Assembly (NCBI RefSeq): GCF_988242995.1
Contig: NZ_OZ547043.1
Reading direction: 5' to 3' (one strand)
Length of the DNA stretch: 64,000 nucleotides
A program made the position numbers and the translations under genes. The notes under the pieces are model-generated. The model did no database searches and was not told the DNA's origin. It saw only the letters and a program-made list of their open reading frames with translations. Below, piece after piece: positions 1,821-41,477 of the stretch; position 1 is the first letter of the stretch, and each line of letters starts with the position of its first letter.

Positions 1821-4687
<2,867 letters not shown>

Positions 4688-5236
4688 TTATCGTTCATGA
4701 GAAGCATAACGTAAAGGGAAAAGCTCGATTAGACGGCAGGATTTGTCAGGGGTTATGAACGAAATTCATAAATCTGCTTAAGTGTTGCGATGAGTCGTGC
4801 AAGTTCGATATCCCTGCAATTCACAGTCTGATGAAGGAAAATGAATATCCATAAAAAATATATCGGTTTATCCTGGCGTATATACCTACTTCGACGTATT
4901 TCCAATAGTTGTTAATTAAAGGCAGGCCATTATTATTCACTCTGAATAATGAATTATTCACTGTCCGCAGAGTAAAAATATAACTTAGGTATCTATTTAA
5001 TAACTTGCACAAAAAGCTAAATTTTTACCCATAAATAAAAATATAATCCCGCGCCCAACCACCTGATGAGTGGCTACAGACACTGGATATATTAGGTGGC
5101 GGTGTACTTTCTTACATAAAGGTATTTCCTTTTCTGCGGAAAAGGAAATCGGGGATTTCCCGGTTTTTCTGACAAGCAGACGCCACTATTTGTGTCTGCC
5201 TATGTTCGTTAATTCGTTCATCAGGAAATTATCTCA

Positions 5237-9490: not shown

Positions 9491-9523
9491 TATTAAGAAT
9501 ATGAAAGTAACATTCTAATAAAC

Positions 9524-9556
9524 AATAATGGCGTTGACATCTTCAACGCCATTATT
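9524..9556. terminator. 14-bp perfect inverted repeat between convergent eaeH and ykgA; likely bidirectional terminator
   Basis: aataatggcgttga-catct-tcaacgccattatt, T-rich on both flanks. Confidence 0.45.
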
Positions 9557-9610
9557 TATTGAATTGCCTGACAGTAGTCTCGTTATATATTCATTTAGAT
9601 ATAGCGACAA

Positions 9611-10516
9611 CTAAACCGGACGAACGGGGATAAAAATTTCGCAAACAATGTTATTGCTATCAATTTCGACGAAATTTTCATTGTAATAAAACCGCTCAAT
9701 ATCACTGCCGTTCACTCTGGCTAACCCCCTGGCAGGTAATTCCATCAGATAGAGGTTTCGCGCCCATTCAGGGTAGTGCTCCCACTCACCTTCATAGCGG
9801 AAAGAGGCATACAGTCCTCGGTTAATTGTCCACTCTTTCGACATCTCTGAATCGGTTTGTTTGCATACCGTACCGGCAAAAGTTTCAACTGTGAGCAAAT
9901 CGACCGATTTTGTTGACGGTTCGAATGTGGAGACGAAATAGATATCCGTCTTAAAACTCTTCATACATCTGGCTAAATGATGACGTCGCAGTTTGACTTC
10001 TTCATCCGGTGATTTATTCGACACTTCAATGTCATATTTAAATGAATCGCCAAAAATAGGTGTCTCAGGAAAGTTGACTAATTTACACTCCGTCTTTTGC
10101 TGTTGACGTATTAAAAAAGAAGGGAAGATATTTGCGAGATCCCAATAATCACGGTGGCGGTATTCACGGGGAGAGCAGCCGAATAACTTTTTAAATTCGC
10201 GGCTGAATGACTGCTGTGAATCAAAATGCAAAGAGAGTGCAATATCAAGCATAGATTTCGCGGTGAGCCGGACAAGAATGGCGGCACGACAAAGCCTTCG
10301 TTTGCGAATGTATTCTCCCAAAGGCACATGCATGAAATTTCGGAACAGAAGCTGGATGTTGCGTCTGCTGTAGCCAGATTTCTGTGCGATATCTTCGATT
10401 GAAATAGGGTGTTCGAGATTGCACTCAATCCACTCCAGGAGCTGCTGTAGAATCTTCTGCCTGATCATCACATTCTCCGTTAATTCTTTGTCATATCGCA
10501 CATTTTCGTTATGCAC
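9611..10516 (-). CDS. ykgA: AraC-family regulator with C-terminal GyrI-like effector domain (Rob-like architecture)
   Basis: 301-aa ORF; AraC HTH signatures (IEDIAQKSGYSRRNIQLLFRNF..., SQQSFSREFKKLFGCSPREYR). Start may be the internal MIRQKIL. Gene name from recalled K-12 neighbourhood. Confidence 0.65.
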   Translation of the reverse strand: MHNENVRYDKELTENVMIRQKILQQLLEWIECNLEHPISIEDIAQKSGYSRRNIQLLFRNFMHVPLGEYIRKRRLCRAAILVRLTAKSMLDIALSLHFDSQQSFSREFKKLFGCSPREYRHRDYWDLANIFPSFLIRQQQKTECKLVNFPETPIFGDSFKYDIEVSNKSPDEEVKLRRHHLARCMKSFKTDIYFVSTFEPSTKSVDLLTVETFAGTVCKQTDSEMSKEWTINRGLYASFRYEGEWEHYPEWARNLYLMELPARGLARVNGSDIERFYYNENFVEIDSNNIVCEIFIPVRPV

Positions 10517-27405: not shown

Positions 27406-28338
27406 TTAATTCTCCCGATGCAGTAAATCCTGATAGATCCCCGTTAATATGCCATTTGGCGAAAATTGTTTTTTAATCCACTGCGTCACCTGACCCGTAG
27501 CAGAATGCTGAGTTGCGAGTAACATGCGTGAATCCTGGCGCGGATTATGGATTTGTCGGGTAACCAGCAGGGATTGCGCCATCGCCTCACGGACCATGTA
27601 ATCCGGCAAAAAACCAATCCCTTCACCTAAAATCTGGCACTGACATTTGGTGTTGAAATCTGGCACCAGAATCGACTCCTGCCCATGCAGCAACCAGCCC
27701 ACTTTTTTATTAATCGTATGCGCGGTGTCCTCCACCATGATATTAGGATAGAGACGCAGTTGGCTTTCGGCGATGGGTTCCGGCACAAAGGCTAATGGGT
27801 GATCCGGGGTGATAGCAAAAGCCCAGCGAATTGCGCCAATCTCCGTGTAATCAATGCCGCCGCCGTCCAGCAGTGTGTCGGGCGCGCCGATAGCAATATT
27901 CGCCTGATTATTAATAATCGCATCCCAGACGCCGTTATACACTTCGGTCGTCACGGTAATCTGGCAGGTTGGAAACTGCTTTTTCAGTACCTGTAATAAG
28001 CGTGCGGTGTGTTTGGGCGTATAAAGCAGTTGGTTAATACAAATGCGCACCCGTGCTTCTATACCCTGCGAAATAGTATCGATGCTGCGTTTGATGGCGT
28101 GAAAATCATTCAGCAGGTCGGTAGCTTTGCGGAAAAAATAACGCCCGGACTCCGTTAACTCAATGCTGCGGGTACTGCGAGTGAACAGCACCACATCCAG
28201 CCCTGTTTCCATTCGCTTGATGGTGTAGCTAATGGCGGAAGTGGTTAAACCCAACTCTTCTGCGGCTTTACTGAAACTGCCAAAACGCGCAGCGGTAGTA
28301 AATGCCAACAGATTCTCTTCGGTAAAAATTGAGTTCAT
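27406..28338 (-). CDS. yahB: LysR-family transcriptional regulator
   Basis: 310 aa; HTH (LLAFTTAARFGSFSKAAEELGLTTSAISYTIKRME). Confidence 0.8.
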   Translation of the reverse strand: MNSIFTEENLLAFTTAARFGSFSKAAEELGLTTSAISYTIKRMETGLDVVLFTRSTRSIELTESGRYFFRKATDLLNDFHAIKRSIDTISQGIEARVRICINQLLYTPKHTARLLQVLKKQFPTCQITVTTEVYNGVWDAIINNQANIAIGAPDTLLDGGGIDYTEIGAIRWAFAITPDHPLAFVPEPIAESQLRLYPNIMVEDTAHTINKKVGWLLHGQESILVPDFNTKCQCQILGEGIGFLPDYMVREAMAQSLLVTRQIHNPRQDSRMLLATQHSATGQVTQWIKKQFSPNGILTGIYQDLLHREN

Positions 28339-28429: not shown

Positions 28430-28927
28430 TTAATACCCGTCGCGTTTAGTCGTCGCTTCGCTTAATTTTTGTCCGCCATATTCTGAAATTATCCCCACGC
28501 AGTTACCCGCCAGAAAACCCAGTAATGTCACCGTCCAGTTCATCCCGCTGGCAAAAAATAGCGTCATGCCGAGAAAGCCTCCGGGAATAAAAGACAGTAA
28601 ACCGAAACGTCCTTGCCAGACCACCACCGCCGAGAAGGGTACAGTCATAATCACGCTCGCCCAGAACGTGGACAATCCACTCACCGAGGCCAGCCAACCG
28701 GCAGCCAGCGCGGCGAAAAACGCCCACACCATCCCGGAATAATTAACCGCCAGGCTTCTGATAAACCCCGATTTACCGCCGCCTGCGGCATAAAAACTGC
28801 AAAAGGCGACGAAGCCAATAGTTCCTAATAATTCCCATCCCTGAGAGAGCCCGACATGTGAAGACACTAACTGCCAAAGCCCTGCACAAATACCGACGGT
28901 GACACCCGTTGCCGTGAGTCCGTTCAT
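28430..28927 (-). CDS. yahC: small inner-membrane protein
   Basis: 165 aa, four to five hydrophobic helices. Confidence 0.7.
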   Translation of the reverse strand: MNGLTATGVTVGICAGLWQLVSSHVGLSQGWELLGTIGFVAFCSFYAAGGGKSGFIRSLAVNYSGMVWAFFAALAAGWLASVSGLSTFWASVIMTVPFSAVVVWQGRFGLLSFIPGGFLGMTLFFASGMNWTVTLLGFLAGNCVGIISEYGGQKLSEATTKRDGY

Positions 28928-29184
28928 CTTGTTCCCCTCTGGTTAGACATGGACGAAAGCTACTCTTACATGTGCAGACTATAGAGAAATAAAACCTGAT
29001 TGAGTGAAAGGGTATCGGGTCAAAGAAACAAATATTGCACTACCGCACACTGCGAAAAGATTGTTGAACATCATTCAACAAAAAGGCGAAATACGGCGAA
29101 TTAAATTTAAGCGGGTTCTTTTATCAGATTATCGTTGCTATTCTCAATTCATCGAAAACAGCCACAAAAATCAGGGGAATGTGA

Positions 29185-29790
29185 ATGACTATAAAAAATC
29201 TACCTGCCGACTATTTATTGGCTGCGCAACAGGGTGATATCGATAAAGTAAAAACCTGCCTTGCGCTGGGTGTCGATATTAATACCTGCGATCGTCAGGG
29301 GAAAACGGCAATTACGCTGGCAAGTTTATATCAGCAATATGCTTGCGTTCAGGCATTAATTGATGCCGGAGCAGATATTAATAAGCAAGATCAAATATGT
29401 TCAAATCCTTTTTTAATTAGCTGCCTGACCGGCGATTTAACCCTGTTACGGATTATTTTACCGGCTAAACCTGATCTTAATTGCGTCACCCGTTTTGGCG
29501 GTGTCGGCCTGACGCCTGCCTGTGAAAAAGGCCATTTAAGTATTGTAAAAGAGCTTTTGGCGCATACGGAGATTAACGTTAACCAGACCAACCATGTTGG
29601 CTGGACGCCGCTACTGGAAGCAATCGTGCTTAATGATGGCGGGATTAAACAGCAGGCGATTGTCCAGTTATTGCTGGAACACGGTGCCAGCCCGCACATG
29701 ACGGATAAATATGGCAAAACGCCGCTGGAACTGGCGCGGGAACGAGGCTTTGAAGAGATTGCTCAGTTGCTGATTGCGGCAGGTGCATAA
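29185..29790 (+). CDS. yahD: ankyrin-repeat protein
   Basis: 201 aa; repeated ankyrin signatures (GKTAITLASLYQQYACVQALIDAGADIN, GWTPLLEAIVLN...VQLLLEHGASPH, GKTPLELARERGFEEIAQLLIAAGA). Confidence 0.8.
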   Translation: MTIKNLPADYLLAAQQGDIDKVKTCLALGVDINTCDRQGKTAITLASLYQQYACVQALIDAGADINKQDQICSNPFLISCLTGDLTLLRIILPAKPDLNCVTRFGGVGLTPACEKGHLSIVKELLAHTEINVNQTNHVGWTPLLEAIVLNDGGIKQQAIVQLLLEHGASPHMTDKYGKTPLELARERGFEEIAQLLIAAGA

Positions 29791-29829: not shown

Positions 29830-30693
29830 GTGTGGGCGCTAACTGCGGATGCTGATTTTCTGGCGCAGCGGGGGCAAGGACAGGTTGAACAGGTCTTTGC
29901 CAGAGCGGTAAATATCGCACTTCCGGCCCGCCAGCAGTTGCTGACGCTGCTTTGTGAAGAGTACGACAATGCGCCAAACAGTTGTCGGTTGGCACTCACT
30001 CACTTTGATGGTCTGTTCCGGCATGGTGATAAGGTTCAGTTTGACGATCAAGGCATTACGGTTGGTCAACATCTTCATATAGAGATGAGTCATTGCCTGC
30101 GTTGGCTGTCCCCAACCTTGCAAATGACCGCTGTGAATTTTCACCTTATTGCCTGGCAACAGTGGCACGACATTATTCATCAGCACCTGGGGGAAAATGA
30201 AACCCTGTTTAATTATCGCGGCGATAATCCGTTTTATCAGGCGTTAAATAAAGAATTACATATTAAACGACGGGCAGTTATTCAGGAAGTAAACGATAAA
30301 CAAAATATCGCCTTAGCGGTCGCCAGTATGATGGGGTTAGGGATTGGCCTTACGCCATCAGCCGATGATTATTTAACAGGTCTGGCGCTTATTTTATTTA
30401 TTTCCGGACATCCGGCGGAAAAATACAAAGAGGAATTTTATATCGGTCTGCAACGCGGCAGAAATAATACCACGTTATTAAGTGCCATAACGCTGGAAGC
30501 CGCATTACAACAACGCTGCCGGGAAAATATTCATCATTTTATTCACGATATTATTTATGGTGTCCCTGGGAATTCAACCCAGGCAATAGAAAAAATTAAA
30601 CATATTGGCTCCAGTTCCGGCTGCGACATGCTGTATGGCATGGCCGATGGTTGTGCGCTGAGCCAAACCTACGGAGGGAATTATGTCAGTTAA
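29830..30693 (+). CDS. yahE: DUF2877-type protein (YlbF/AllH-like)
   Basis: 287-aa ORF; 3' end overlaps yahF start by 11 nt. Confidence 0.7.
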   Translation: MWALTADADFLAQRGQGQVEQVFARAVNIALPARQQLLTLLCEEYDNAPNSCRLALTHFDGLFRHGDKVQFDDQGITVGQHLHIEMSHCLRWLSPTLQMTAVNFHLIAWQQWHDIIHQHLGENETLFNYRGDNPFYQALNKELHIKRRAVIQEVNDKQNIALAVASMMGLGIGLTPSADDYLTGLALILFISGHPAEKYKEEFYIGLQRGRNNTTLLSAITLEAALQQRCRENIHHFIHDIIYGVPGNSTQAIEKIKHIGSSSGCDMLYGMADGCALSQTYGGNYVS

Positions 30694-32230
30694 AATAGTC
30701 ATTAAACCGAATACCTATTTTGATTCTGTCTCGCTGATGTCTATCTCCACGCGTGCAAATAAACTCGACGGCGTCGAGCAGGCATTTGTGGCGATGGCGA
30801 CCGAAATGAACAAAGGCGTGCTGAAGAATTTAGGACTGCTGACGCCGGAACTGGAGCAGGCGAAAAACGGTGACCTGATGATTGTCATCAATGGTAAATC
30901 GGGTGCGGACAACGAGCAGTTGCTGGTGGAGATTGAAGAACTGTTCAACACCAAAGCTCAAACTGGTTCACATGAAGCACGCTATGCCACTATTGCCAGC
31001 GCCAAAAAGCATATCCCGGAAAGTAACCTGGCGGTGATTTCGGTCAACGGTCTGTTTGCCGCTCGCGAAGCGCGTCAGGCGCTGCAAAACGATCTTAACG
31101 TGATGCTGTTTTCCGATAACGTCTCAGTTGAAGATGAACTGGCGCTCAAACAGTTGGCCCACGAAAAAGGGCTGCTGATGATGGGGCCAGACTGCGGTAC
31201 GGCGATTATCAACGGCGCGGCGCTCTGCTTTGGTAACGCCGTGCGTCGCGGCAACATCGGCATTGTTGGCGCATCCGGCACCGGTAGCCAGGAACTGAGC
31301 GTCCGCATTCATGAATTTGGCGGCGGCGTTTCGCAACTGATCGGCACCGGCGGGCGCGACCTGAGCGAGAAAATCGGCGGCCTGATGATGCTCGACGCCA
31401 TCGGGATGCTGGAAAACGATCCGCAAACTGAAATTATTGTGCTTATCTCCAAACCGCCTGCGCCTGCGGTGGCCCGCAAAGTGCTGGAACGCGCACGTGC
31501 CTGCCGCAAGCCGGTGGTGGTCTGCTTCCTCGGTCGTGGCGAAACGCCAGTGGATGAGCAGGGGCTACAGTTTGCTCGCGGCAGCAAAGAAGCGGCGCTG
31601 AAAGCGGTAATGCTCTCCGGCGTGAAACAGGAACATCTCGATCTGCATACCCTGAACCAGCCATTGATTGCTGACGTGCGCGCTCGCCTGAAGCCACAAC
31701 AGAAATACATTCGTGGCCTGTTCTGCGGCGGTACGCTGTGTGACGAAACCATGTTCGCGGTGATGGAAAAACACGGCGATGTCTACAGCAACATCCAGCC
31801 CGATCCTGAATTCCGCCTGAAAGATATCAACCGCAGCATCAAACACACCTTCCTCGACTTTGGTGATGACGACTTCACCAACGGCAAGCCGCATCCAATG
31901 ATTGACCCCACCAACCGCATCAGCCGGTTGATCGAAGAAGCGCGCGATCCAGAAGTGGCGGTGATCGTGATGGATTTTGTGCTCGGATTTGGATCGCATG
32001 AAGATCCGGTCGGTTCCACCATTGAGGCGATCAAAGAGGCGAAAGCGATCGCCGCTGCCGAAGGACGTGAGTTGATCATTCTCGCCTATGTGCTGGGTAC
32101 CGATCTTGATACGCCATCATTAGAACAACAAAGCCAGATGTTGCTTGATGCCGGAGTGATTCTGGCCAGCAGCAGCACCAATACCGGATTGCTGGCGCGT
32201 GAATTTATCTGCAAAGGGGAGGAAGCCTGA
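30683..32230 (+). CDS. yahF: FdrA-like protein (CoA-ligase/succinyl-CoA-synthetase alpha-like fold)
   Basis: 515-aa ORF; glycine-rich Rossmann-like stretches (GIVGASGTGSQE). Confidence 0.8.
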   Translation: MSVKIVIKPNTYFDSVSLMSISTRANKLDGVEQAFVAMATEMNKGVLKNLGLLTPELEQAKNGDLMIVINGKSGADNEQLLVEIEELFNTKAQTGSHEARYATIASAKKHIPESNLAVISVNGLFAAREARQALQNDLNVMLFSDNVSVEDELALKQLAHEKGLLMMGPDCGTAIINGAALCFGNAVRRGNIGIVGASGTGSQELSVRIHEFGGGVSQLIGTGGRDLSEKIGGLMMLDAIGMLENDPQTEIIVLISKPPAPAVARKVLERARACRKPVVVCFLGRGETPVDEQGLQFARGSKEAALKAVMLSGVKQEHLDLHTLNQPLIADVRARLKPQQKYIRGLFCGGTLCDETMFAVMEKHGDVYSNIQPDPEFRLKDINRSIKHTFLDFGDDDFTNGKPHPMIDPTNRISRLIEEARDPEVAVIVMDFVLGFGSHEDPVGSTIEAIKEAKAIAAAEGRELIILAYVLGTDLDTPSLEQQSQMLLDAGVILASSSTNTGLLAREFICKGEEA

Positions 32231-33648
32231 TGAGCCCGTCACTGTTTAGCCAACCGTTGAACGTTATTAACGTCGGTATCGCCATGTTTAGCGATGATCT
32301 GAAAAAGCAGCATGTAGAAGTGACCCAACTCGACTGGACGCCGCCGGGGCAGGGCAATATGCAGGTGGTGCAGGCGCTGGATAACATTGCCGATTCGCCG
32401 CTGGCAGACAAAATCGCCGCCGCTAACCAGCAGGCGCTGGAGCGCATTATCCAGTCGCATCCGGTGCTGATTGGTTTTGATCAGGCGATAAACGTGGTGC
32501 CGGGCATGACGCCGAAAACCATTCTTCACGCCGGGCCGCCGATCACCTGGGAAAAAATGTGCGGCGCGATGAAAGGCGCGGTCACCGGGGCGCTGGTGTT
32601 CGAAGGGCTGGCGAAAGATCTCGACGAGGCGGCTGAACTGGCGGCCTCCGGGGAGATCTCCTTCTCGCCGTGCCACGAACATGACTGCGTGGGATCGATG
32701 GCGGGTGTTACCTCGGCCTCGATGTTTATGCACATCGTAAAAAACAAAACCTACGGCAACATCGCTTACACCAATATGAGTGAGCAGATGGCGAAGATTT
32801 TGCGTATGGGCGCTAACGACCAGAGCGTGATTGACCGCCTCAACTGGATGCGCGATGTGCAGGGGCCAATGCTGCGCGACGCGATGAAAATTATCGGCGA
32901 AATCGATCTGCGCTTAATGCTGGCGCAAGCGCTGCATATGGGCGATGAATGCCATAACCGCAATAACGCCGGGACGACGCTGCTGATTCAGGCGCTGACG
33001 CCGGGGATTATTCAGGCGGGTTATTCCGTCGAGCAACAGCGCGAAGTGTTTGAGTTTGTCGCCAGCAGCGACTACTTCTCCGGCCCGACGTGGATGGCGA
33101 TGTGTAAAGCGGCGATGGATGCGGCGCACGGCATCGAATACAGCACCGTGGTCACCACCATGGCGCGTAACGGCGTCGAGTTCGGCCTGCGGGTCAGCGG
33201 CCTGCCGGGGCAATGGTTTACCGGCCCGGCGCAGCAGGTGATCGGCCCGATGTTTGCCGGTTATAAGCCGGAAGATTCGGGGCTGGATATCGGCGACAGC
33301 GCCATCACTGAAACCTACGGCATTGGCGGATTTGCCATGGCGACCGCGCCTGCTATCGTCGCGCTGGTGGGCGGTACGGTGGAAGAGGCTATCGATTTCT
33401 CCCGCCAGATGCGTGAAATCACTCTCGGTGAAAACCCCAACGTCACCATTCCGCTGCTCGGTTTTATGGGCGTGCCGTCGGCAATCGACATCACCCGCGT
33501 GGGCAGCAGCGGCATTCTGCCGGTGATCAACACCGCCATCGCCCATAAAGATGCGGGCGTCGGCATGATTGGTGCGGGCATTGTGCATCCACCATTCGCC
33601 TGCTTCGAGAAAGCCATTCTCGGCTGGTGCGAACGTTACGGCGTCTGA
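32230..33648 (+). CDS. yahG: DUF1116-type protein (YlbE/AllG-like)
   Basis: 472-aa ORF; ATG overlaps yahF TGA in a TGATG junction. Confidence 0.8.
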   Translation: MSPSLFSQPLNVINVGIAMFSDDLKKQHVEVTQLDWTPPGQGNMQVVQALDNIADSPLADKIAAANQQALERIIQSHPVLIGFDQAINVVPGMTPKTILHAGPPITWEKMCGAMKGAVTGALVFEGLAKDLDEAAELAASGEISFSPCHEHDCVGSMAGVTSASMFMHIVKNKTYGNIAYTNMSEQMAKILRMGANDQSVIDRLNWMRDVQGPMLRDAMKIIGEIDLRLMLAQALHMGDECHNRNNAGTTLLIQALTPGIIQAGYSVEQQREVFEFVASSDYFSGPTWMAMCKAAMDAAHGIEYSTVVTTMARNGVEFGLRVSGLPGQWFTGPAQQVIGPMFAGYKPEDSGLDIGDSAITETYGIGGFAMATAPAIVALVGGTVEEAIDFSRQMREITLGENPNVTIPLLGFMGVPSAIDITRVGSSGILPVINTAIAHKDAGVGMIGAGIVHPPFACFEKAILGWCERYGV

Positions 33649-33742: not shown

Positions 33743-34693
33743 ATGAAAGAACTTGTGGTCGTTGCCATTGGTGGCAACAGCATTATCAAAGATAACGCCA
33801 GCCAGTCGATTGAGCATCAGGCGGAGGCGGTGAAAGCCGTCGCCGATACGGTGCTGGAAATGCTGGCTTCCGATTACGACATTGTGCTGACCCACGGCAA
33901 CGGACCGCAGGTCGGTTTGGATTTACGCCGCGCGGAGATTGCCCACGAGCGCGAAGGGCTGCCCTTAACGCCGCTGGCGAACTGTGTGGCGGATACGCAA
34001 GGCGGCATTGGCTACTTGATCCAACAGGCGCTGAATAACCGACTGGCGCGTCACGGTGAGAAAAAAGCCGTCACCGTGGTGACTCAGGTGGAAGTGGATA
34101 AAAACGATCCGGGTTTTGCTCATCCCACCAAGCCCATCGGCGCATTCTTCAGTGAAAGCCAGCGTGACGAATTACAAAAGGCAAACCCTGACTGGCGTTT
34201 TGTTGAAGATGCCGGACGGGGCTATCGCCGCGTGGTCGCCTCGCCGGAACCGAAACGTATTGTCGAAGCACCTGCCATTAAGGCGCTGATCCAACAAGGT
34301 TTTGTGGTGATTGGCGCGGGCGGCGGTGGAATTCCGGTGGTGTGCAGTGAAGCGGGGGATTACCAAAGCGTGGACGCGGTTATCGACAAAGATCTCTCTA
34401 CCGCGCTATTGGCCCGTGAAATTCACGCCGACATTCTGGTGATCACCACCGGCGTCGAAAAAGTGTGTATTCACTTTGGCAAGCCGCAGCAGCAGGCGCT
34501 GGATCGGGTGGATATTGCCACCATGACCCGCTATATGCAGGAAGGGCATTTCCCGCCTGGCAGCATGTTGCCAAAAATCATCGCCAGCCTGACGTTCCTG
34601 GAGCAGGGCGGCAAAGAAGTGATTATCACCACGCCGGAATGCCTGCCTGCGGCGCTGCGCGGTGAAACAGGCACACATATTATTAAAACGTAA
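33743..34693 (+). CDS. yahI: carbamate kinase
   Basis: ORF 33569..34693; start set to MKELVVVAIGGNSI (ATG 33743); carbamate/amino-acid kinase signatures (LTHGNGPQVG, GGGGIPV). Confidence 0.85.
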   Translation: MKELVVVAIGGNSIIKDNASQSIEHQAEAVKAVADTVLEMLASDYDIVLTHGNGPQVGLDLRRAEIAHEREGLPLTPLANCVADTQGGIGYLIQQALNNRLARHGEKKAVTVVTQVEVDKNDPGFAHPTKPIGAFFSESQRDELQKANPDWRFVEDAGRGYRRVVASPEPKRIVEAPAIKALIQQGFVVIGAGGGGIPVVCSEAGDYQSVDAVIDKDLSTALLAREIHADILVITTGVEKVCIHFGKPQQQALDRVDIATMTRYMQEGHFPPGSMLPKIIASLTFLEQGGKEVIITTPECLPAALRGETGTHIIKT

Positions 34694-34702
34694 GGACGTA
34701 AG

Positions 34703-36085
34703 ATGAAAAAAAACAATAGCCGCCGTGAGTTTCTGAGCCAGAGCTGTAAGATGGTCACCGCCGCCGCGCTGTTTGGTACCTCTGTGCCGCTCGCCCATGC
34801 GGCAGTCTCTGGCACCCTAAACTGCGACGCGAATAACACCATGAAAATCACTGACCCGCACTACTATCTCGACAACGTGCTGCTGGAAACCGGTTTTGAC
34901 TACGAAAACGGTGTGGCGGTACAGACCCGCACGGCGCACCAGACCGTAGAGATTCAGAACGGCAAAATTGTTGCCCTGCGCGAGAACAAGCAGCATCCGG
35001 ACGCCACGCTGCCGCACTATGACGCTGGCGGTAAGCTGATGCTGCCCACCACCCGCGACATGCATATTCATCTCGACAAAACCTTTTACGGCGGGCCGTG
35101 GCGCTCGCTCAATCGCCCGGCAGGCACCACCATCCAGGACATGATCAAACTCGAGCAGAAAATGCTGCCGGAGCTGCAACCGTACACTCAGGAACGAGCG
35201 GAAAAACTGATCGATTTATTGCAGTCGAAAGGCACTACCATTGCCCGCAGCCACTGCAATATCGAACCGGTTTCCGGCCTGAAAAATCTGCAAAATTTGC
35301 AGGCGGTGCTGGCGCGACGTCAGGCGGGCTTCGAGTGTGAAATTGTCGCCTTCCCGCAGCACGGTTTGCTGCTGTCGAAATCGGAACCCTTAATGCGTGA
35401 AGCGATGCAGGCGGGGGCGCATTACGTCGGCGGTCTGGATCCGACCAGTGTTGATGGCGCGATGGAAAAATCCCTCGATACCATGTTCCAGATTGCGCTG
35501 GACTACGACAAAGGCGTTGATATTCACCTGCACGAAACCACTCCGGCAGGCGTGGCAGCCATCAATTATATGGTTGAAACGGTGGAGAAAACGCCGCAAC
35601 TGAAGGGCAAGCTGACCATCAGCCACGCCTTTGCGCTGGCAACGCTCAATGAGCAACAGGTAGATGAACTGGCGCACCGGATGGCGGCGCAGCAAATTTC
35701 TATCGCCTCGACGGTGCCGATTGGCACGCTGCATATGCCGCTCAAACAGTTGCACGACAAAGGCGTAAAAGTGATGACCGGCACCGACAGCGTTATCGAC
35801 CACTGGTCGCCTTACGGCCTGGGCGACATGCTGGAAAAAGCCAATCTGTACGCGCAGCTCTATATTCGTCCTAACGAACAGAACCTCTCCCGCTCGCTGT
35901 TTTTAGCCACTGGCGATGTATTGCCGCTCAACGAAAAAGGCGAGCGCGTGTGGCCCAAAGCGCAGGATGATGCCAGCTTTGTGCTGGTGGACGCCTCCTG
36001 TTCCGCCGAGGCGGTGGCGCGTATCTCGCCGAGAACGGCGACGTTCCATAAAGGGCAACTGGTGTGGGGGAGTGTGGCAGGTTGA
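34703..36085 (+). CDS. yahJ: amidohydrolase-superfamily deaminase with twin-arginine (Tat) signal peptide
   Basis: 460 aa; N-terminus MKKNNSRREFLSQSCKMVTAAALFGTSVPLAHAA (RR-x-FL plus AxA site); metal-binding HxH (MHIHLDKT). Confidence 0.85.
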   Translation: MKKNNSRREFLSQSCKMVTAAALFGTSVPLAHAAVSGTLNCDANNTMKITDPHYYLDNVLLETGFDYENGVAVQTRTAHQTVEIQNGKIVALRENKQHPDATLPHYDAGGKLMLPTTRDMHIHLDKTFYGGPWRSLNRPAGTTIQDMIKLEQKMLPELQPYTQERAEKLIDLLQSKGTTIARSHCNIEPVSGLKNLQNLQAVLARRQAGFECEIVAFPQHGLLLSKSEPLMREAMQAGAHYVGGLDPTSVDGAMEKSLDTMFQIALDYDKGVDIHLHETTPAGVAAINYMVETVEKTPQLKGKLTISHAFALATLNEQQVDELAHRMAAQQISIASTVPIGTLHMPLKQLHDKGVKVMTGTDSVIDHWSPYGLGDMLEKANLYAQLYIRPNEQNLSRSLFLATGDVLPLNEKGERVWPKAQDDASFVLVDASCSAEAVARISPRTATFHKGQLVWGSVAG

Positions 36086-36379
36086 TACGCATTTGAAACG
36101 CCTGCAATGGTGAATCGTAAGAGATTTAAAGCCCCAGGGAGTGGGGCGGGAATGGTTTGTTAATGAATGATCCTGAACTTTATAATCTCCCGGCATAATT
36201 TCCAGGGGATTATTTGAGAGAAATACACAAAAGTGAGTTTTAACAATATTTATCAAGCCATAAATGTGACCTGCTTCGGATAAAAAAGATTAAAAATAGA
36301 AAAACCAATGATACTCTTGCTGATGGTTATCAACAGTAATTAAGATGTGATTTTTTTCCGTAATCGCGAAAATATTCTC

Positions 36380-36790
36380 ATGACCATAAAAGAAAAAATC
36401 TCACAAAAATATCCCCATGCTTCCTTTTGTACTTTTGGCGATTCAGCAGCGTTGGCCGATCACCTCGCAACGTTGATTGCGACAGGTGTTAAAACAGCTT
36501 CCTGTGGTTCGCTGGCGGGATGTATTGAAGACAACGCATTTCCGATGATTGGTGAGTATAAGATTGTAGAAAATAGCCGTGGTGAGCCTGTCTGTGTTAT
36601 CAGAGTGATTGGCCTGCATTTACTGCGCTTTTCTGATGTCACCGCGGAGCTTGCCCGTAAGGAAGGTGAAGGTGACCTCAGTCTTGAATATTGGCGTAAT
36701 GAACACCGTCGTTTTTTCCAGGCAGAAGGATGCTATTCACCCGAAATGGACGTTATCTTTGAAGAATATGCCCTTATTGACGTTGTGTAG
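36380..36790 (+). CDS. ASCH-domain (PUA-like) protein
   Basis: ORF 36347..36790; start set to MTIKEK; FGDSAALADHLATLIATGVKTASCGS resembles ASCH N-terminal signature. Domain call from motif recall only. Confidence 0.55.
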   Translation: MTIKEKISQKYPHASFCTFGDSAALADHLATLIATGVKTASCGSLAGCIEDNAFPMIGEYKIVENSRGEPVCVIRVIGLHLLRFSDVTAELARKEGEGDLSLEYWRNEHRRFFQAEGCYSPEMDVIFEEYALIDVV

Positions 36791-37040
36791 ATAACTATTT
36801 TTCTACGCGAAATAAGCTCACAAACATAAAGTATCGCTAATTTTGTTTATTTTGCTGTTTTTTACGTGATGATTGTCACACTTATTGTTACTGCCCGTTT
36901 TGTCCATATTTATAACCAAATTTTTAATAGCTGCCTGAAATAGGGCTGTTTATTCTGCATAAAAATATTCGAAAATTCTTATTCTCTCCAGCGCGCTAAT
37001 TTGGGCGAACACTTCCTGACTACCCTGCAATGAGGCTGAA

Positions 37041-38027
37041 ATGATGAATAAACGTTTTGTTATCAATATGGTGTCTTCGCTGTTATTAGGCGCTGCGCTA
37101 ATTTCTGCGCCGCTCCAGGCAGCGGAAAAAGTCGTGGTGAATATCTCTAAAGTCGATGGTATGCCGTGGTTTAATCGCATGGGCGAAGGTGTGGTCGAGG
37201 CGGGTAAAGCCTTTGGTGTTAATGCGTCACAGGTGGGGCCTTCAAGTACTGATGCTCCGCAACAGGTTAAAATCATTGAGGATTTAATCGCCCGTAAGGT
37301 TAATGCAATTACAATTGTGCCAAACGATGCCAACGTGCTGGAACCGGTATTCAAAAAAGCGCGAGATGCCGGAATTGTGGTTCTGACCAACGAATCCCCC
37401 GGTCAGCCAAGTGCTAACTGGGATATCGAAATCATTGATAACGAAAAATTTGCCGCTGAATATGTTGAGCATATGGCGAAACGCATGGGTGGCAAGGGCG
37501 GCTATGTGATTTACGTGGGTAGTTTGACCGTGCCGCAGCATAACTTATGGGCTGACTTGCTGGTGAAATACCAGAAAGAGCATTACCCGGATATGCATGA
37601 AGTTACCCGCCGCATGCCGGTTGCCGAGAGTGTGGATGACTCACGTCGTACCACACTGGACCTCATGAAAACCTATCCTGACTTGAAAGCGGTTGTCTCC
37701 TTTGGTTCAAACGGTCCGATTGGCGCGGGACGTGCAGTGAAAGAGAAACGGGCGAAAAATAAAGTCGCAGTCTATGGCATGATGATCCCTTCACAGGCGG
37801 CATCACTGATTAAAAGTGGTGATATCACCGAAGGGATTACTTACGATCCGGCCTCTGCAGGTTACGCACTCGCGGCCGTCGCCAGCACGTTGCTGAAGGG
37901 TGAAGAGATCAAACCTGGATTAGAAATGGAGAATCTCGGTAAGGCCGACGTAGATATGGATAAGCGAATTATCCGTTTCCATAAGGTATTACTGGTCAAC
38001 AAAGACAATATCGACTCACTTTATTAA
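37041..38027 (+). CDS. periplasmic substrate-binding protein of a CUT2 (ribose/AI-2-type) ABC transporter
   Basis: 328 aa; signal peptide MMNKRFVINMVSSLLLGAALISAPLQAAEK; type-I PBP features. Confidence 0.8.
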   Translation: MMNKRFVINMVSSLLLGAALISAPLQAAEKVVVNISKVDGMPWFNRMGEGVVEAGKAFGVNASQVGPSSTDAPQQVKIIEDLIARKVNAITIVPNDANVLEPVFKKARDAGIVVLTNESPGQPSANWDIEIIDNEKFAAEYVEHMAKRMGGKGGYVIYVGSLTVPQHNLWADLLVKYQKEHYPDMHEVTRRMPVAESVDDSRRTTLDLMKTYPDLKAVVSFGSNGPIGAGRAVKEKRAKNKVAVYGMMIPSQAASLIKSGDITEGITYDPASAGYALAAVASTLLKGEEIKPGLEMENLGKADVDMDKRIIRFHKVLLVNKDNIDSLY

Positions 38028-38075
38028 TCCATTTCTTCGGGGCGAAAGCCCCGATTCTTATTGCCAGGGGATGCT

Positions 38076-39560
38076 ATGGAAACCTTCCTTTCCCTTCGTC
38101 ATATCAACAAAACGTTTCATGCCACGCGAGCGCTGCGCGATGTTTCTCTCGACTTTATGTCGGGTGAGGTGCACTGCCTTGCCGGGCAAAACGGCTGTGG
38201 TAAATCGACGTTGATTAAAATTATGTCCGGTGTTTATCGCCCGGATGAGGGGGCGGAAATTACGCTTGGTGGGAAAAACTGGTCAAAGCTGACACCCGCC
38301 GCTTCGGTGGCGCAGGGGATTCAGGTGATTTATCAGGACCTCTCTTTATTTCCTAACCTGAGTGTCTGGGAGAATATCGCCGTGAATCACTATCACCACG
38401 GTCTGTTTGTTAACCGCCGTCGTCTGCGTGAGGTGGCGCAGGCGGCAATGACCAGTATTAACGTCACATTGCCACTGGATACGCTCGTTTCTGAGCTTTC
38501 AATTGCCCGCTGTCAGCTGGTGGCAATTTGCCGTGCACTGGCGCAGGACGCACGGTTGATCGTGATGGATGAACCAACCGCTTCGCTGACCCATCAGGAA
38601 GTGCAAGGGTTATTACAGGTGGTGCATCAATTGCGGGAACGCGGGATCTGCGTGGTCTTCGTCAGTCATCGTCTGGAAGAAGTGATGGAAGTTTCCGACC
38701 GTATTTCAGTGCTGAAAGATGGTGAGCTGGTCGGGACCTTTCCGGCCGCAGAGATGACCACAAAACAACTCAGTTTTCTGATGACCGGCCAGGAGTTCGA
38801 ATATCAGGTACGAGAGTTGTGGCAGGGAAAATCCAGCACCCCGGTGCTGGAGGTGCGTAATTTAAGTCGTCATGGGGAATATCAAAATATTAACTTGCGG
38901 GTGGAAGCGGGCGAAGTGGTGTCGATTGTTGGCCTGCTTGGTGCGGGGCGCACGGAATTATGTCTGAGTCTGTTTGGTATGACCCGACCGGATGCTGGTG
39001 AGATCCTCATCAACGGTCAGCCGGTTACACTGCATAGTAACCAGGACGCCATCCGCCACGGTATTGGTTATGTTTCGGAAGATCGCATGTCGCGCGGTTT
39101 GGTGATGGCGCAATCTATTGAAGACAACATCATTAGCACTGTTTTTCACAAGGTAAAAGATCGCTTCGGCTTTCTGAGTGAAGCTAAAGTGCGTGACCTG
39201 GTGGACAGGCTAATCAAGGCATTGACCATCAAAGTCTCTGACCCACATCTCCCGGTGAATACGCTTTCCGGGGGTAACGCGCAGCGAGTATCGATCGCCA
39301 AATGGCTGGCGATTGGGCCACGACTGTTGATTCTCGATAGCCCGACAGTCGGTGTTGATATCGCCAACAAAGCAGGAATATACGGCATTATCAGCGATCT
39401 GGCGGCTCATGGCATTGCGGTATTGATGATCTGCGATGAAATTGAAGAAGCGTGGTATCAAAGCCACCGGATTTTGGTAATGCAGAAAGGTCAGATCACC
39501 CATAGCTTCCTGCCTGACAGCAGTTCTCAGGCCAGGATTGCGGAGGTGGTAAATGGCTGA
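38076..39560 (+). CDS. ABC transporter ATPase with duplicated nucleotide-binding domains (RbsA-like)
   Basis: ORF 38061..39560; Walker A GQNGCGKST, signature LSGGNAQRV, Walker B LLILDSPT; start set to METFLSL. Confidence 0.8.
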   Translation: METFLSLRHINKTFHATRALRDVSLDFMSGEVHCLAGQNGCGKSTLIKIMSGVYRPDEGAEITLGGKNWSKLTPAASVAQGIQVIYQDLSLFPNLSVWENIAVNHYHHGLFVNRRRLREVAQAAMTSINVTLPLDTLVSELSIARCQLVAICRALAQDARLIVMDEPTASLTHQEVQGLLQVVHQLRERGICVVFVSHRLEEVMEVSDRISVLKDGELVGTFPAAEMTTKQLSFLMTGQEFEYQVRELWQGKSSTPVLEVRNLSRHGEYQNINLRVEAGEVVSIVGLLGAGRTELCLSLFGMTRPDAGEILINGQPVTLHSNQDAIRHGIGYVSEDRMSRGLVMAQSIEDNIISTVFHKVKDRFGFLSEAKVRDLVDRLIKALTIKVSDPHLPVNTLSGGNAQRVSIAKWLAIGPRLLILDSPTVGVDIANKAGIYGIISDLAAHGIAVLMICDEIEEAWYQSHRILVMQKGQITHSFLPDSSSQARIAEVVNG

Positions 39561-40524
39561 ACTGAAAAAACGTCATGAATTCTGGCTGGCATTACTGATT
39601 GTGGGGCTGTTTGTTGGCCTTGCCTGGCGCAGCGACGAGTTTCTGACATTCGGTAATTTGTACGATCTCGCCAATAACTATGCCATGTTGACTATTCTCG
39701 CCTGTGGTTTGTTTGTGGTGTTAATTTCCGGTGGGATTGATATTTCGTTTCCGGCAATGACCATCATTGCGCAATACGGCATGGTGCTGTTGCTGCAAAA
39801 AATTGGTGGCAACTTTGCTGTCGCGTTTGCACTGGCGGGCGGCATCGGCATTTTACTTGGCTTAATAAACGCCTTACTGGTTAATCGCCTACGGGTGCCG
39901 TCTATCATCATCACCATTTCGACGCTGAATATTTTCTATGGCCTGCTGTTATGGTTGAGTAAAGGTGTGTGGCTGTACGACTTTCCGCCGTGGTTTGAGC
40001 AGGGGGTAATGTTGTTCAAGTACACCGATGCTGACGGCTATGACTATGGCCTTGGTCTGCCGCTGATCGCCATGATTACGGTGGTGCTGCTAACAGCGTT
40101 TATCATGAATTTCACCAGTGTAGGGCGCAAAATTTATGCCCTTGGCGGGAACCGTGAATCAGCCAGTCGCATCGGCTTTAGCGTGCTGAAACTGCAACTT
40201 TTCGTTTACGGCTATATGGGATTGATGTCTGGTGCTGCGGGTGTAGTGCAGTCGTGGACGGTGATGACTGTCGCCCCCGATTCTCTTCTGGGTTATGAGC
40301 TGACAGTACTGGCTGCGGTGGTGCTTGGCGGCACTAGTTTGCTCGGCGGGCGCGGCACGTTAACCGGTACTTTGCTCGGCGTGGTGTTGTTGGCAGTGAT
40401 GCAAAACGGGCTAAATTTATTGGGAGTCTCGTCTTACTGGCAAACATTGATCACCGGCATCATCATCGTTGCCAGCATTAGTGCCACGGCGTGGAGTCAG
40501 CATCAGAACCGGAGTCTGCTATGA
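39553..40524 (+). CDS. ABC transporter permease (RbsC-like)
   Basis: 323-aa polytopic ORF; start overlaps ATPase stop by 8 nt. Confidence 0.8.
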   Translation: MAELKKRHEFWLALLIVGLFVGLAWRSDEFLTFGNLYDLANNYAMLTILACGLFVVLISGGIDISFPAMTIIAQYGMVLLLQKIGGNFAVAFALAGGIGILLGLINALLVNRLRVPSIIITISTLNIFYGLLLWLSKGVWLYDFPPWFEQGVMLFKYTDADGYDYGLGLPLIAMITVVLLTAFIMNFTSVGRKIYALGGNRESASRIGFSVLKLQLFVYGYMGLMSGAAGVVQSWTVMTVAPDSLLGYELTVLAAVVLGGTSLLGGRGTLTGTLLGVVLLAVMQNGLNLLGVSSYWQTLITGIIIVASISATAWSQHQNRSLL

Positions 40525-41477
40525 AAAAATCGTGGCGTAACAACGTTGAGTTTTACTTGATCGGCCTGCTGGTGCTAACTGTTGCAGCCTTCAGCATTAC
40601 TATGCCGGAGATTTTCTGGTCGATAAGTAATTTCCAGTCCGTCGCTTCGCAAATGCCCGTGCTGGGCATTCTGGCGTTGGCTATGGCGGTGACCATGCTT
40701 TGCGGTGGCATTAACTTGTCAATTATTGCCACTGCTAACGCCTGTTCACTGGTAATGGCGTGGGTGGCGACTCAGTATCCACCGGGTATTGCTACGGTTG
40801 TCGCTACGCTGCTGGCGGGCGCTGGCGCGGCGGTGATAATCGGTTTATGTAACGGCGTATTGATTGCTGGTATTCGAGTGTCGCCAATTCTTGCAACGCT
40901 TGGGATGATGACGTTGCTCAAAGGGGTAAATATTCTGGTGACAGGCGGTAGCGCCATTGCCAATTATCCCTCATGGGTGCTGTGGTTGAATCATGCGCAA
41001 TGGTTCGGTATTCCGCTACCGATGTGGTTGTTTGCCGCAGTGGCACTGGGGCTGTGGATATTGCTGGAGAAAACGCCGCTCGGTAAAGCCATTTATCTGA
41101 TTGGTTCTAACGAACGAGCAACACTTTACTCCGGTATTAACACTCGTCGGGTGCTGATATGGGTGTATGTCATTTCCGCCTTACTTTGTGCGGTAGCGGC
41201 ATTTTTGATGATGTCGAAACTCAACTCGGCTAAGGCCTCTTATGGCGAATCGTACTTGCTGGTGTCAATCCTCGCGGCAGTACTCGGCGGGGTTAATCCG
41301 GACGGCGGCAGCGGGCGGATAATTGGTATGGTGCTGGCGCTGTTTCTTCTGCAAATTATTGAAAGCGGCTTCAATATTCTCGGTATAAGCCCCTACCTGA
41401 CGATGGCCTTATGGGGAACGTTGCTGCTCTGTTTCATTCAGGCTCGCGGCATGTTGGGGCTGGATCGGGTGGTTTAA
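40521..41477 (+). CDS. ABC transporter permease (RbsC-like), second copy
   Basis: ORF 40491..41477; start set to MKKSWRNN (ATG 40521) forming an ATGA overlap with the upstream stop. Confidence 0.8.
   Translation: MKKSWRNNVEFYLIGLLVLTVAAFSITMPEIFWSISNFQSVASQMPVLGILALAMAVTMLCGGINLSIIATANACSLVMAWVATQYPPGIATVVATLLAGAGAAVIIGLCNGVLIAGIRVSPILATLGMMTLLKGVNILVTGGSAIANYPSWVLWLNHAQWFGIPLPMWLFAAVALGLWILLEKTPLGKAIYLIGSNERATLYSGINTRRVLIWVYVISALLCAVAAFLMMSKLNSAKASYGESYLLVSILAAVLGGVNPDGGSGRIIGMVLALFLLQIIESGFNILGISPYLTMALWGTLLLCFIQARGMLGLDRVV

Follow-up and report, generated by a model that had tools for sequence, protein, structure and literature searches.

Why does an operon of enterobacterial metabolic genes open with a gene for a protein that is built entirely of ankyrin repeats? 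The question is raised by yahD, which is located at 29185..29790 on the + strand of a 64,000-nucleotide (nt) stretch of DNA, hereafter the window, from contig NZ_OZ547043.1 of RefSeq assembly GCF_988242995.1. It is the same gene as yahD of Escherichia coli K-12 (b0318, UniProt P77736), in the same position relative to yahC and yahE, and there is no substantive difference from the K-12 protein, only a few substitutions, with extra genes 3' of yahJ in the present strain. RefSeq already labels the feature, between yahC and yahE, as 'yahD: ankyrin repeat domain-containing protein', and the fold is an ordinary one, which leaves the function as the modestly interesting part. In the searchable literature YahD turned up only in tables from screens and in lists, never as the subject of a study of its own; YahD and ArpA are the only ankyrin-repeat proteins of E. 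coli named in one report (PMC7033237), and yahC–yahM is among the densest blocks of uncharacterised genes remaining in E. coli K-12 (PMC11551758). From comparative analysis we propose that YahD is a dedicated, non-catalytic accessory component of the yah module that would bind through the concave face of its repeats, most probably to a core formed by YahF and YahG, and we place the probability of this reading at roughly 45%. That the function of YahD is specific to the yah module we consider probable, and its functional coupling to the cluster, most plausibly to the YahF–YahG core and not to YahE, is well supported by the comparisons of loci and sequences described below.

The ankyrin fold of YahD and its conserved face

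The initial annotation described tandem ankyrin repeats in a cytoplasmic protein of 201 amino acids (aa), and the repeats were borne out by each approach used: an open reading frame (ORF) with an ATG start occupies exactly 29185..29790, stop codon included, and its product is recognized as ankyrin by Pfam, by sequence matches in the Protein Data Bank (PDB) and by structure prediction with AlphaFold2. Five Pfam ankyrin models passed their cut-offs, namely Ank_4 (E 2e-27, 95.1 bits versus a cut-off of 22.7), Ank_2 (E 5.5e-27, 94.6 bits versus 27.3), Ank (E 2.8e-24, 84.3 bits versus 21.1, with the best single match at residues 39–69), Ank_3 (63.4 bits versus 22.3) and Ank_5 (64.4 bits versus 27), and the PDB matches, with E-values down to 2e-72, were designed ankyrin repeat proteins (DARPins) and ankyrin-1/2. 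No domain other than ankyrin was found in YahD, either with Pfam or by reading the protein against the 33-residue ankyrin consensus register. A single-sequence AlphaFold2 prediction was uninformative (predicted local distance difference test score, pLDDT, of 50.6), and it was rerun with an alignment of 80 ortholog sequences, which gave a model with a pLDDT of 96.5, a predicted template-modelling (TM) score of 0.90 and 12 helices arranged as six pairs. Both its profile matches and its solenoid therefore place YahD in the ankyrin repeat superfamily.

The borders of the six repeats, all on the + strand, were read from the sequence in the 33-residue register. Repeat 1, the N-terminal cap, comprises residues 7–35 (29203..29289), where the model has helices at residues 3–16 and 19–27, and is followed by repeat 2 (residues 36–68; 29290..29388), which is also delineated by Pfam and AlphaFold2, and by repeat 3 (residues 69–101; 29389..29487), which is degenerate, with NPFL replacing TPLH. 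Repeat 4 (residues 102–135; 29488..29589) is one residue longer and contains the invariant residues R103, F104, G106, E114, K115 and T135, while V138, W140, V148, L149 and T173 are invariant in repeat 5 (residues 136–173; 29590..29703), which carries an insertion of 5–6 residues with a conserved NDGGIK. The C-terminal cap, repeat 6 (residues 174–201; 29704..29787), is apparent from both conservation and the model. Invariance in repeats 4 and 5 was judged over 23 orthologs that were non-redundant at 90% identity, the same set in which position classes were compared.

That comparison points to a binding role. The binding face was defined as the positions that are randomised in DARPins (x2, x3, x5, x13, x14 and x33 of each repeat), and the frequency of the major residue was 0.92 on this face, 0.90 in the framework and 0.72 on the convex face, with mean entropies of 0.38, 0.38 and 1.11, respectively (Mann-Whitney p = 2e-4 for the binding versus the convex face). 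The difference was most marked in repeats 4–6, where entropy was 0.10 on the concave binding face versus 0.82 on the convex face, and where R103, F104, G106, E114, K115, T135, V138, W140, V148, L149, T173, K175 and Y176 are near-invariant. Such constraint on the concave face is that of target-binding ankyrins, with the proviso that the conserved patch is partly subfamily-wide, and it suggests that a binding function of YahD is constrained. The gene as a whole is under purifying selection: in comparisons with close and intermediate relatives the ratio of nonsynonymous to synonymous substitution rates (dN/dS) was 0.045–0.135 for yahD, compared with 0.14–0.32 for yahE, 0.016–0.085 for yahF and 0.02–0.037 for yahG. 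Within E. coli, a 1-kb stretch around yahD was present at 95–99.9% identity in 5091 of 5426 complete genomes, nearly equal to the prevalence of yahFG (5068/5426); the yahD of the window is 99.9% identical at the DNA level to that of other RefSeq strains, and its protein is 96–99% identical to the main E. coli clusters.

The nearest structural relatives of YahD are likewise compact six-repeat proteins of ~200 aa. The best match in a Foldseek search with the YahD model was the ankyrin domain of Acinetobacter baumannii ABAYE2397 (5d66; TM 0.93, root-mean-square deviation 1.2 Å, 42% identity), followed by Enterococcus faecalis EF0377 (3hra; TM 0.89, 37% identity) and then by DARPins; the latter, like eukaryotic ankyrin-1/2, have the same repeat fold and register as YahD (TM 0.79–0.89), a generic likeness that implies no common function. 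The 5d66-type protein has the repeat-4 and repeat-5 motifs of YahD and its repeat-5 insertion, but it differs from YahD in having a signal peptide and unrelated neighbours, none of which, over 12 kb on either side, is a Yah homolog. No hydrophobic signal segment was found at the N-terminus of YahD (MTIKNLPADYLLAAQQGD), whereas the relatives in A. baumannii and Bacillus mycoides have one, and the cytoplasmic location claimed for YahD is thus reasonable. Other relatives include a Paenibacillus protein encoded beside LysR and major facilitator superfamily (MFS) genes, and the B. mycoides protein, which is lipoprotein-like. The best short hit, P0157 (43% identity, a double ankyrin), was rejected as a functional relative of YahD given its context of MFS, two-component and ATP-binding cassette (ABC) transporter genes. 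Ankyrin repeats are also a feature of Dot/Icm effectors of Legionella and Coxiella (AnkG, AnkH, AnkY and others), but YahD scored just 20–73 bits against models with cut-offs of 500–1400 and, unlike these effectors, it is encoded in a chromosomal metabolic operon without secretion-related context. With neither a signal segment nor an equivalog-level effector match, YahD does not group with secreted or exported bacterial ankyrins.

Association of YahD with YahG-type loci

A direct library search with YahD returned 233,938 hits, mostly giant multi-repeat ankyrins, and was of no use for orthology. Loci were therefore sampled through YahG, by taking the best 80 of 367 confirmed AllG-family loci from contigs of one genome per species; all of these 80 were YahG-type (86–99% identity, from ~20 genera). 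Among the YahG-type loci with upstream DNA, all 78 have a YahD ortholog, identified by tblastn and ORF extraction, at the head of the operon. These orthologs are 67–97% identical, 75 of 77 are exactly 201 aa long, and they come from genera that include Escherichia, Citrobacter, Kluyvera, Raoultella, Enterobacter, Serratia, Buttiauxella, Providencia, Proteus, Zophobihabitans and Aeromonas. By its length, identity and position the ORF of the window is a member of this orthologous group of Enterobacterales and Aeromonas.

Three gene arrangements were apparent among the 76 loci with full upstream DNA. In architecture A (17 loci), the divergent genes yahB and yahC precede yahD-E-F-G-I-J, as in the window. 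In architecture B (35 loci), yahC is missing and a multi-pass membrane protein of 520 aa, here called X, is encoded between yahG and yahI. Architecture C (24 loci) has the B layout minus the AllH-family ORF, that is, yahE, so that yahD is followed by yahF after ~105–110 nt; a profile search of these 24 loci, which covered the loci only, found no AllH-family ORF anywhere in them. The yahE-less loci (L036, L038, L040, L042–L045, L047–L054, L056–L059, L061, L062, L064, L067 and L085 in our set) are from Enterobacter, Leclercia, Lelliottia, Silvania, Huaxiibacter, one Serratia and Aeromonas cavernicola. Since YahD is kept in all three architectures, it is more faithfully retained than the AllH-like subunit. 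Protein X (for example L051 11422–13002, L077 11675–13237 and L094 14578–16128) belongs to no Pfam or NCBIfam family, replaces yahC, is also encoded on the IncF plasmid copy described below, and is probably the transporter of the pathway.

The flanking genes vary by genus, and the yah module therefore moves as a unit. A YahD copy at 71% identity, together with the rest of the cluster, lies between insertion sequence (IS) elements on ~70 IncF conjugative plasmids, mostly from poultry and human E. coli, and many strains consequently have two yah clusters. On one of these, the E. coli plasmid p1517k (L094, NZ_MW800638.1), a complete type-B cluster is bordered by IS1 and IS100 and encodes the LysR regulator, the ankyrin protein, DUF2877, FdrA, YahG, the membrane protein and YahI. 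The Pseudocitrobacter clusters (L010 and L011) are mosaics, in which yahF–yahJ are 96–99% identical to E. coli (dS 0.14–0.23) but yahC, yahD and yahE are just 54–74% identical (dS 1.1–1.7), and this contrast places a recombination breakpoint between yahE and yahF.

Mobility of this kind raises the question of whether YahD is simply a passenger, a general-purpose ankyrin of a widespread subfamily that became linked to yahEFG through a mobile cassette. Its relatives with 39–48% identity in unrelated contexts, some of them exported and with the signature surface residues in common, fit such a history, as does an overexpression screen in uropathogenic E. coli (UPEC) UTI89, in which a fragment spanning yahD, yahE and part of yahF, enriched 17-fold, was among 23 high-stringency filamentation regions (PMC6206680), filamentation not being an obviously metabolic phenotype; this screen was the sole functional hint on yahD in the searchable literature. 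A passenger would, however, hardly be expected to persist in 78 of 78 loci, at constant length and with a dN/dS of ~0.1, through three architectures, an internal recombination breakpoint and transfer to plasmids, and clusters of Bacilli likewise acquired an ankyrin of this type. We regard the passenger explanation as quite unlikely.

The clusters of Bacilli were identified using the sequence of PDB 3clq, by which YahG-type proteins were found throughout this class, and six of them were inspected. All six have a PucR-type regulator gene divergent from AllH-AllF-AllG, and four, from Peribacillus, Paenibacillus, Psychrobacillus and Trichococcus, also contain a gene for a protein with ankyrin repeats and a tetratricopeptide repeat (TPR) domain. 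BLAST and hmmscan were needed to recognize these ankyrin-TPR proteins, since the gene that follows AllG had no precomputed Pfam entry. Their N-terminal ~195 residues are collinear with YahD (E ~1e-37) and comprise six repeats, including the insertion in repeat 5, at 26–35% identity, or 33–36% in the matches by which those of Peribacillus, Paenibacillus and Psychrobacillus were recognized, and the AllG proteins of their clusters are 65–76% identical to YahG; the C-terminal TPR domain of ~190 aa, on the other hand, has no counterpart in YahD. The clusters also differ from yah in having a PucR-type and not a LysR regulator, and in the position of the ankyrin gene, which is between the AllG and carbamate kinase genes in Peribacillus, Paenibacillus and Psychrobacillus and directly upstream of AllH in Trichococcus. 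The ankyrin-TPR proteins are no closer to YahD than are the free-standing members of the subfamily, which suggests that one type of ankyrin joined these enzyme genes on more than one occasion, and YahD and the ankyrin-TPR proteins may thus represent independent recruitments.

In Peribacillus we also observed a second ankyrin ORF, absent from the gene table, at L089 3714–4145. It encodes 143 aa, appears to be N-terminally truncated, is 43% identical to YahD residues 54–201 and 68% identical to the free-standing ankyrin of B. mycoides, and is located between xanthine/uracil permease and DUF4822 genes, ~3.4 kb upstream of the AllH gene.

The carbamoyltransferase-like core and other candidate partners

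The genes that follow yahD are those of an AllFGH-type carbamoyltransferase system, in that AllH, AllF and AllG families and a carbamate kinase are all represented, and here too the initial annotation was correct in naming yahE, yahF, yahG and yahI, with yahJ also present. All are on the + strand: yahE (29830..30693) encodes an AllH-family protein (DUF2877, PF11392, 8e-28); yahF (30683..32230) an AllF/FdrA-family protein that is succinyl-CoA-synthetase-alpha-like (PF00549, PF02629); yahG (32230..33648) an AllG-family protein (DUF1116, PF06545, 7e-89) with ~70% identity to PDB 3clq; yahI (33743..34693) a carbamate kinase family protein (NF009007, 5e-195); and yahJ (34703..36085) an amidohydrolase of the cytosine-deaminase-like superfamily. 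The yah and all enzyme genes have common Pfam families, and BLASTP against the K-12 All proteins gave identities of 38% for YahF–AllF, 45% for YahG–AllG, 25% for YahE–AllH and 38% for YahI–AllK. AllFGH was identified in 2024 as an oxamic transcarbamylase (OXTCase), in a report in which the yah genes are not mentioned (PMC11326118), and that YahE, YahF and YahG form a complex would follow by analogy with this paralog. YahD itself has no AllF, AllG (PF06545) or AllH (PF11392) match and does not belong to the families that define the enzyme's subunits; in this respect yahD is accessory to the cluster.

By paralogy with the oxalurate branch encoded by allFGHK, in which the AllFGH reaction is oxalurate + Pi <-> oxamate + carbamoyl phosphate, YahF and YahG, with or without YahE, would catalyze the phosphorolytic cleavage of a carbamoyl (ureido) compound to carbamoyl phosphate, which YahI would then turn into ATP, NH3 and CO2, while the YahJ amidohydrolase would act upstream in the pathway. 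The substrate plausibly differs from that of AllFGH, given the identities of 25–45% and the different accessory genes. The two systems also differ in gene order, H-F-G in yah versus F-G-H in all, and in the location of a segment of ~50 residues, which is N-terminal on YahG and C-terminal on AllF: YahG residues 2–53 (window 32230–32390) resemble the tail of AllF (residues 504–554; 29% identity, E 1e-4), and the same segment is an NCBIfam FdrA C-terminal match. That it has moved between subunits of two paralogous systems suggests that it may mark the location of the F–G interface.

On the proposal we favor, YahD would bind its partner via the concave face of repeats 3–6 and thereby control assembly, stability or activity, and the YahF–YahG core would be the most probable partner. 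The choice of YahF–YahG is based on the logic that AllF/AllG-type proteins are the only ones present in every cluster with such an ankyrin, whereas YahE, YahC, the membrane protein X, YahJ, carbamate kinase and the type of regulator are all variable among ankyrin-bearing clusters. The suggestion in the initial annotation that YahD is a scaffold or regulator and not an enzyme gains in substance from the absence of anything but ankyrin repeats, the 78/78 linkage, purifying selection, the conserved face and the recurrence in Bacilli; within YahEFG, YahE does not qualify as the essential partner. A more far-reaching version, to which we give noticeably less credence, is that the YahD-type ankyrin is a fourth, non-catalytic subunit, either an assembly factor or an allosteric regulator, of a distinct and widespread class of AllFGH-like carbamoyltransferases, that it was recruited independently in Enterobacterales (as free-standing YahD) and in Bacilli (as the ankyrin-TPR fusion), and that it replaces the lost AllH-like subunit in lineages such as Enterobacter.

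Several observations weigh against a role for YahD in the YahF–YahG core. The enzyme family can work without an ankyrin, as purified AllF-AllG-AllH was active in the absence of one (PMC11326118), and the all locus has no ankyrin gene, in contrast to the yah operon, which opens with one. Likewise, no ankyrin gene is listed in a third AllFGH-type cluster found on plasmids (described below), and two of the six clusters from Bacilli, those of Enterococcus and the Oceanobacillus-like one, have no ankyrin gene within 10 kb; these two clusters encode instead a membrane protein of 390 aa. The idea of YahD as a non-enzymatic interaction module for the downstream enzymes is still in line with all of the comparative data. 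In addition, free-standing six-repeat ankyrins in unrelated contexts are 39–48% identical to YahD, which is above the ankyrin-TPR proteins, and the patch R-F/Y-G-G...E-K/R-G; G-W..LLEA..L..G is common to exported and free-standing members. The conserved patch is, as judged from these sequences, a trait of a wider ankyrin subfamily and not a YahFG-specific signature; it may be structural, or it may bind a ligand unrelated to YahF/G, and its occurrence in unrelated contexts means that the patch alone does not identify YahF/G as the ligand. For the same reason we rejected the cross-phylum invariance of F104, G106, E114, K115, W140, L149 and G152-G153 as proof of a YahF/G interface. Finally, the argument for the partner, being an intersection of gene contents, assumes that YahD and the ankyrin-TPR proteins of Bacilli do the same job.

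The yahE-less loci bear directly on the part played by YahE. Since 24 loci without an AllH-family ORF keep YahD, with its concave face unchanged, YahE is not an indispensable ligand. The same loci also allow for the possibility that YahD replaces, or overlaps in function with, the AllH-like YahE and acts as the third enzyme subunit in lineages that no longer have yahE, such as Enterobacter, Leclercia and Lelliottia. In these loci yahF directly follows yahD with no AllH-family ORF elsewhere in the locus; YahE is the fastest-evolving protein of the module (35–64% identity between genera), and AllH was apparently sub-stoichiometric in purified AllFGH (PMC11326118). Set against this, YahD and YahE are dissimilar and are both present in 52 of the 76 loci, OXTCase activity needed all three all genes (PMC11326118), and an AllH encoded elsewhere could complement, as loci and not whole genomes were examined. 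Replacement of YahE by YahD is, in our judgment, unlikely.

A regulatory partner was also considered. The LysR-family regulator gene yahB (27406..28338, - strand), whose product scored below the cut-offs of its closest NCBIfam models, AllS and PunR, is divergent from yahD and was found in every enterobacterial locus with upstream DNA (74–98% identity). The intergenic region between yahC and yahD (28928..29184, 257 nt), a putative control region, shows 81% conservation when E. coli is compared with Kluyvera and Raoultella, and includes the conserved blocks TGCACnACnGCACA and CGGCGAATnAAnTTTAAGCGGGTTCTTTT. It contains a perfect 8-bp inverted repeat, TTGTTGAA-N5-TTCAACAA, at 29061..29081, which includes a T-N11-A motif, is kept in part in Kluyvera and Raoultella, and is a candidate binding site for YahB; no sigma-70-like site was detected in the region when it was scanned for consensus promoters. 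YahD, encoded by the first gene, might then bind YahB as an anti- or co-activator of its own operon, in a manner reminiscent of IkB feedback, and in Pseudocitrobacter the genes from yahB to yahE have a common history that is unlike that of yahF–yahJ. This LysR-box-like dyad and the constancy of yahB notwithstanding, the ankyrin-TPR clusters of Bacilli use PucR-family regulators and not LysR, no DNA-binding or regulator-binding feature was detectable in YahD, and we know of no description of a LysR regulator under the control of an ankyrin partner. YahB is, on balance, an improbable ligand for YahD.

The remaining candidates are on the envelope side. YahJ begins with MKKNNSRREFLSQSCKMVTAAALFGTSVPLAHA (window 34703–34810), a typical twin-arginine export signal (SRREFL), and is therefore probably periplasmic, with the other pathway enzymes cytoplasmic. 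YahJ co-occurs with YahD in all enterobacterial loci that have downstream DNA, and each architecture includes some membrane protein, either YahC (DUF1097; 28430..28927, - strand), which is confined to architecture A, or the 520-aa X in B and C. YahD could on this basis be imagined as a chaperone or proofreader for YahJ exported by the twin-arginine translocation (Tat) system, or as a tether of the enzymes to YahC or X. Neither role accords well with Paenibacillus and Psychrobacillus, where the loci with the ankyrin-TPR gene encode no homolog of YahJ, or with the variation of the membrane partner (YahC, X or the 390-aa protein of Bacilli) while the concave face of YahD is invariant. The Tat chaperones known to us, of the TorD/DmsD/NapD families, are not ankyrins, and YahD, with ankyrin Pfam matches only and with ankyrin-TPR counterparts in YahJ-less loci, does not group with chaperones of Tat substrates. 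We consider an envelope function very unlikely. The unclassified ~390-aa membrane proteins of Bacilli are encoded at L088 11198–12379, L093 11489–12658 and L091 11485–12669, and the Trichococcus ankyrin cluster was found to have no carbamate kinase gene.

Operon context, flanking genes and implications

From its spacing, yahD is the first gene of an operon, yahDEFGIJ, that diverges from yahB. The gaps are 39 nt for yahD–yahE, 94 nt for yahG–yahI and 9 nt for yahI–yahJ, yahE and yahF overlap by 11 nt and yahF and yahG by 1 nt, and there is no terminator-like site on the + strand of the operon. The region 3' of yahJ (window 36347–41477) contains an ORF with an ASCH domain and four genes for an ABC transporter, which consists of a periplasmic sugar-binding protein, a duplicated ATPase and two BPD_transp_2 permeases. 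The RefSeq strain with which the window was compared has a hypothetical gene and then yahK directly after yahJ, and 36347–41477 looks like strain-specific gene content.

A clue to the substrate of these enzymes may be that genes for nucleobase or nucleoside functions repeatedly flank YahG-type clusters. They include an inosine-uridine nucleoside hydrolase and a LacI regulator in Providencia (L077 15843–17855), a cytosine/purine permease and a CMP/dCMP-type deaminase in Paenibacillus (L090 13728–15650) and a xanthine/uracil permease in Peribacillus (L089 1913–3196). The PucR-type regulators of Bacilli and the AllS and PunR models nearest to YahB are further hints of this kind. The third AllFGH-type cluster mentioned above, at 2734–10375 of the Klebsiella pneumoniae IncFII plasmid NZ_CP023489.1 (L096), has an AllG that is 48% identical to YahG, together with a ring-opening amidohydrolase, an NCS2 nucleobase permease and carbamate kinase, has IS26 on its flanks, and is of a type that is widespread on plasmids of Citrobacter, Klebsiella and Enterobacter.

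Because the yahD gene and its fold were already annotated, our results are a modest refinement and not a discovery. The yah-type enzyme was recognized only in 2024, through its paralog AllFGH (PMC11326118), and the ankyrin gene now appears as the most faithfully kept accessory gene of the module, persisting where the AllH-like subunit is lost. Together with the ankyrin-TPR fusions of Bacilli, this provides a concrete and testable hypothesis, as well as natural variants in which to examine it. Should YahD turn out to regulate YahFG or to be one of its subunits, a bacterial ankyrin protein would, unusually, have a defined housekeeping role, and, if the more doubtful interpretation of YahD as a fourth subunit were true, this would be the first defined biochemical role of an ankyrin in core bacterial nitrogen catabolism.

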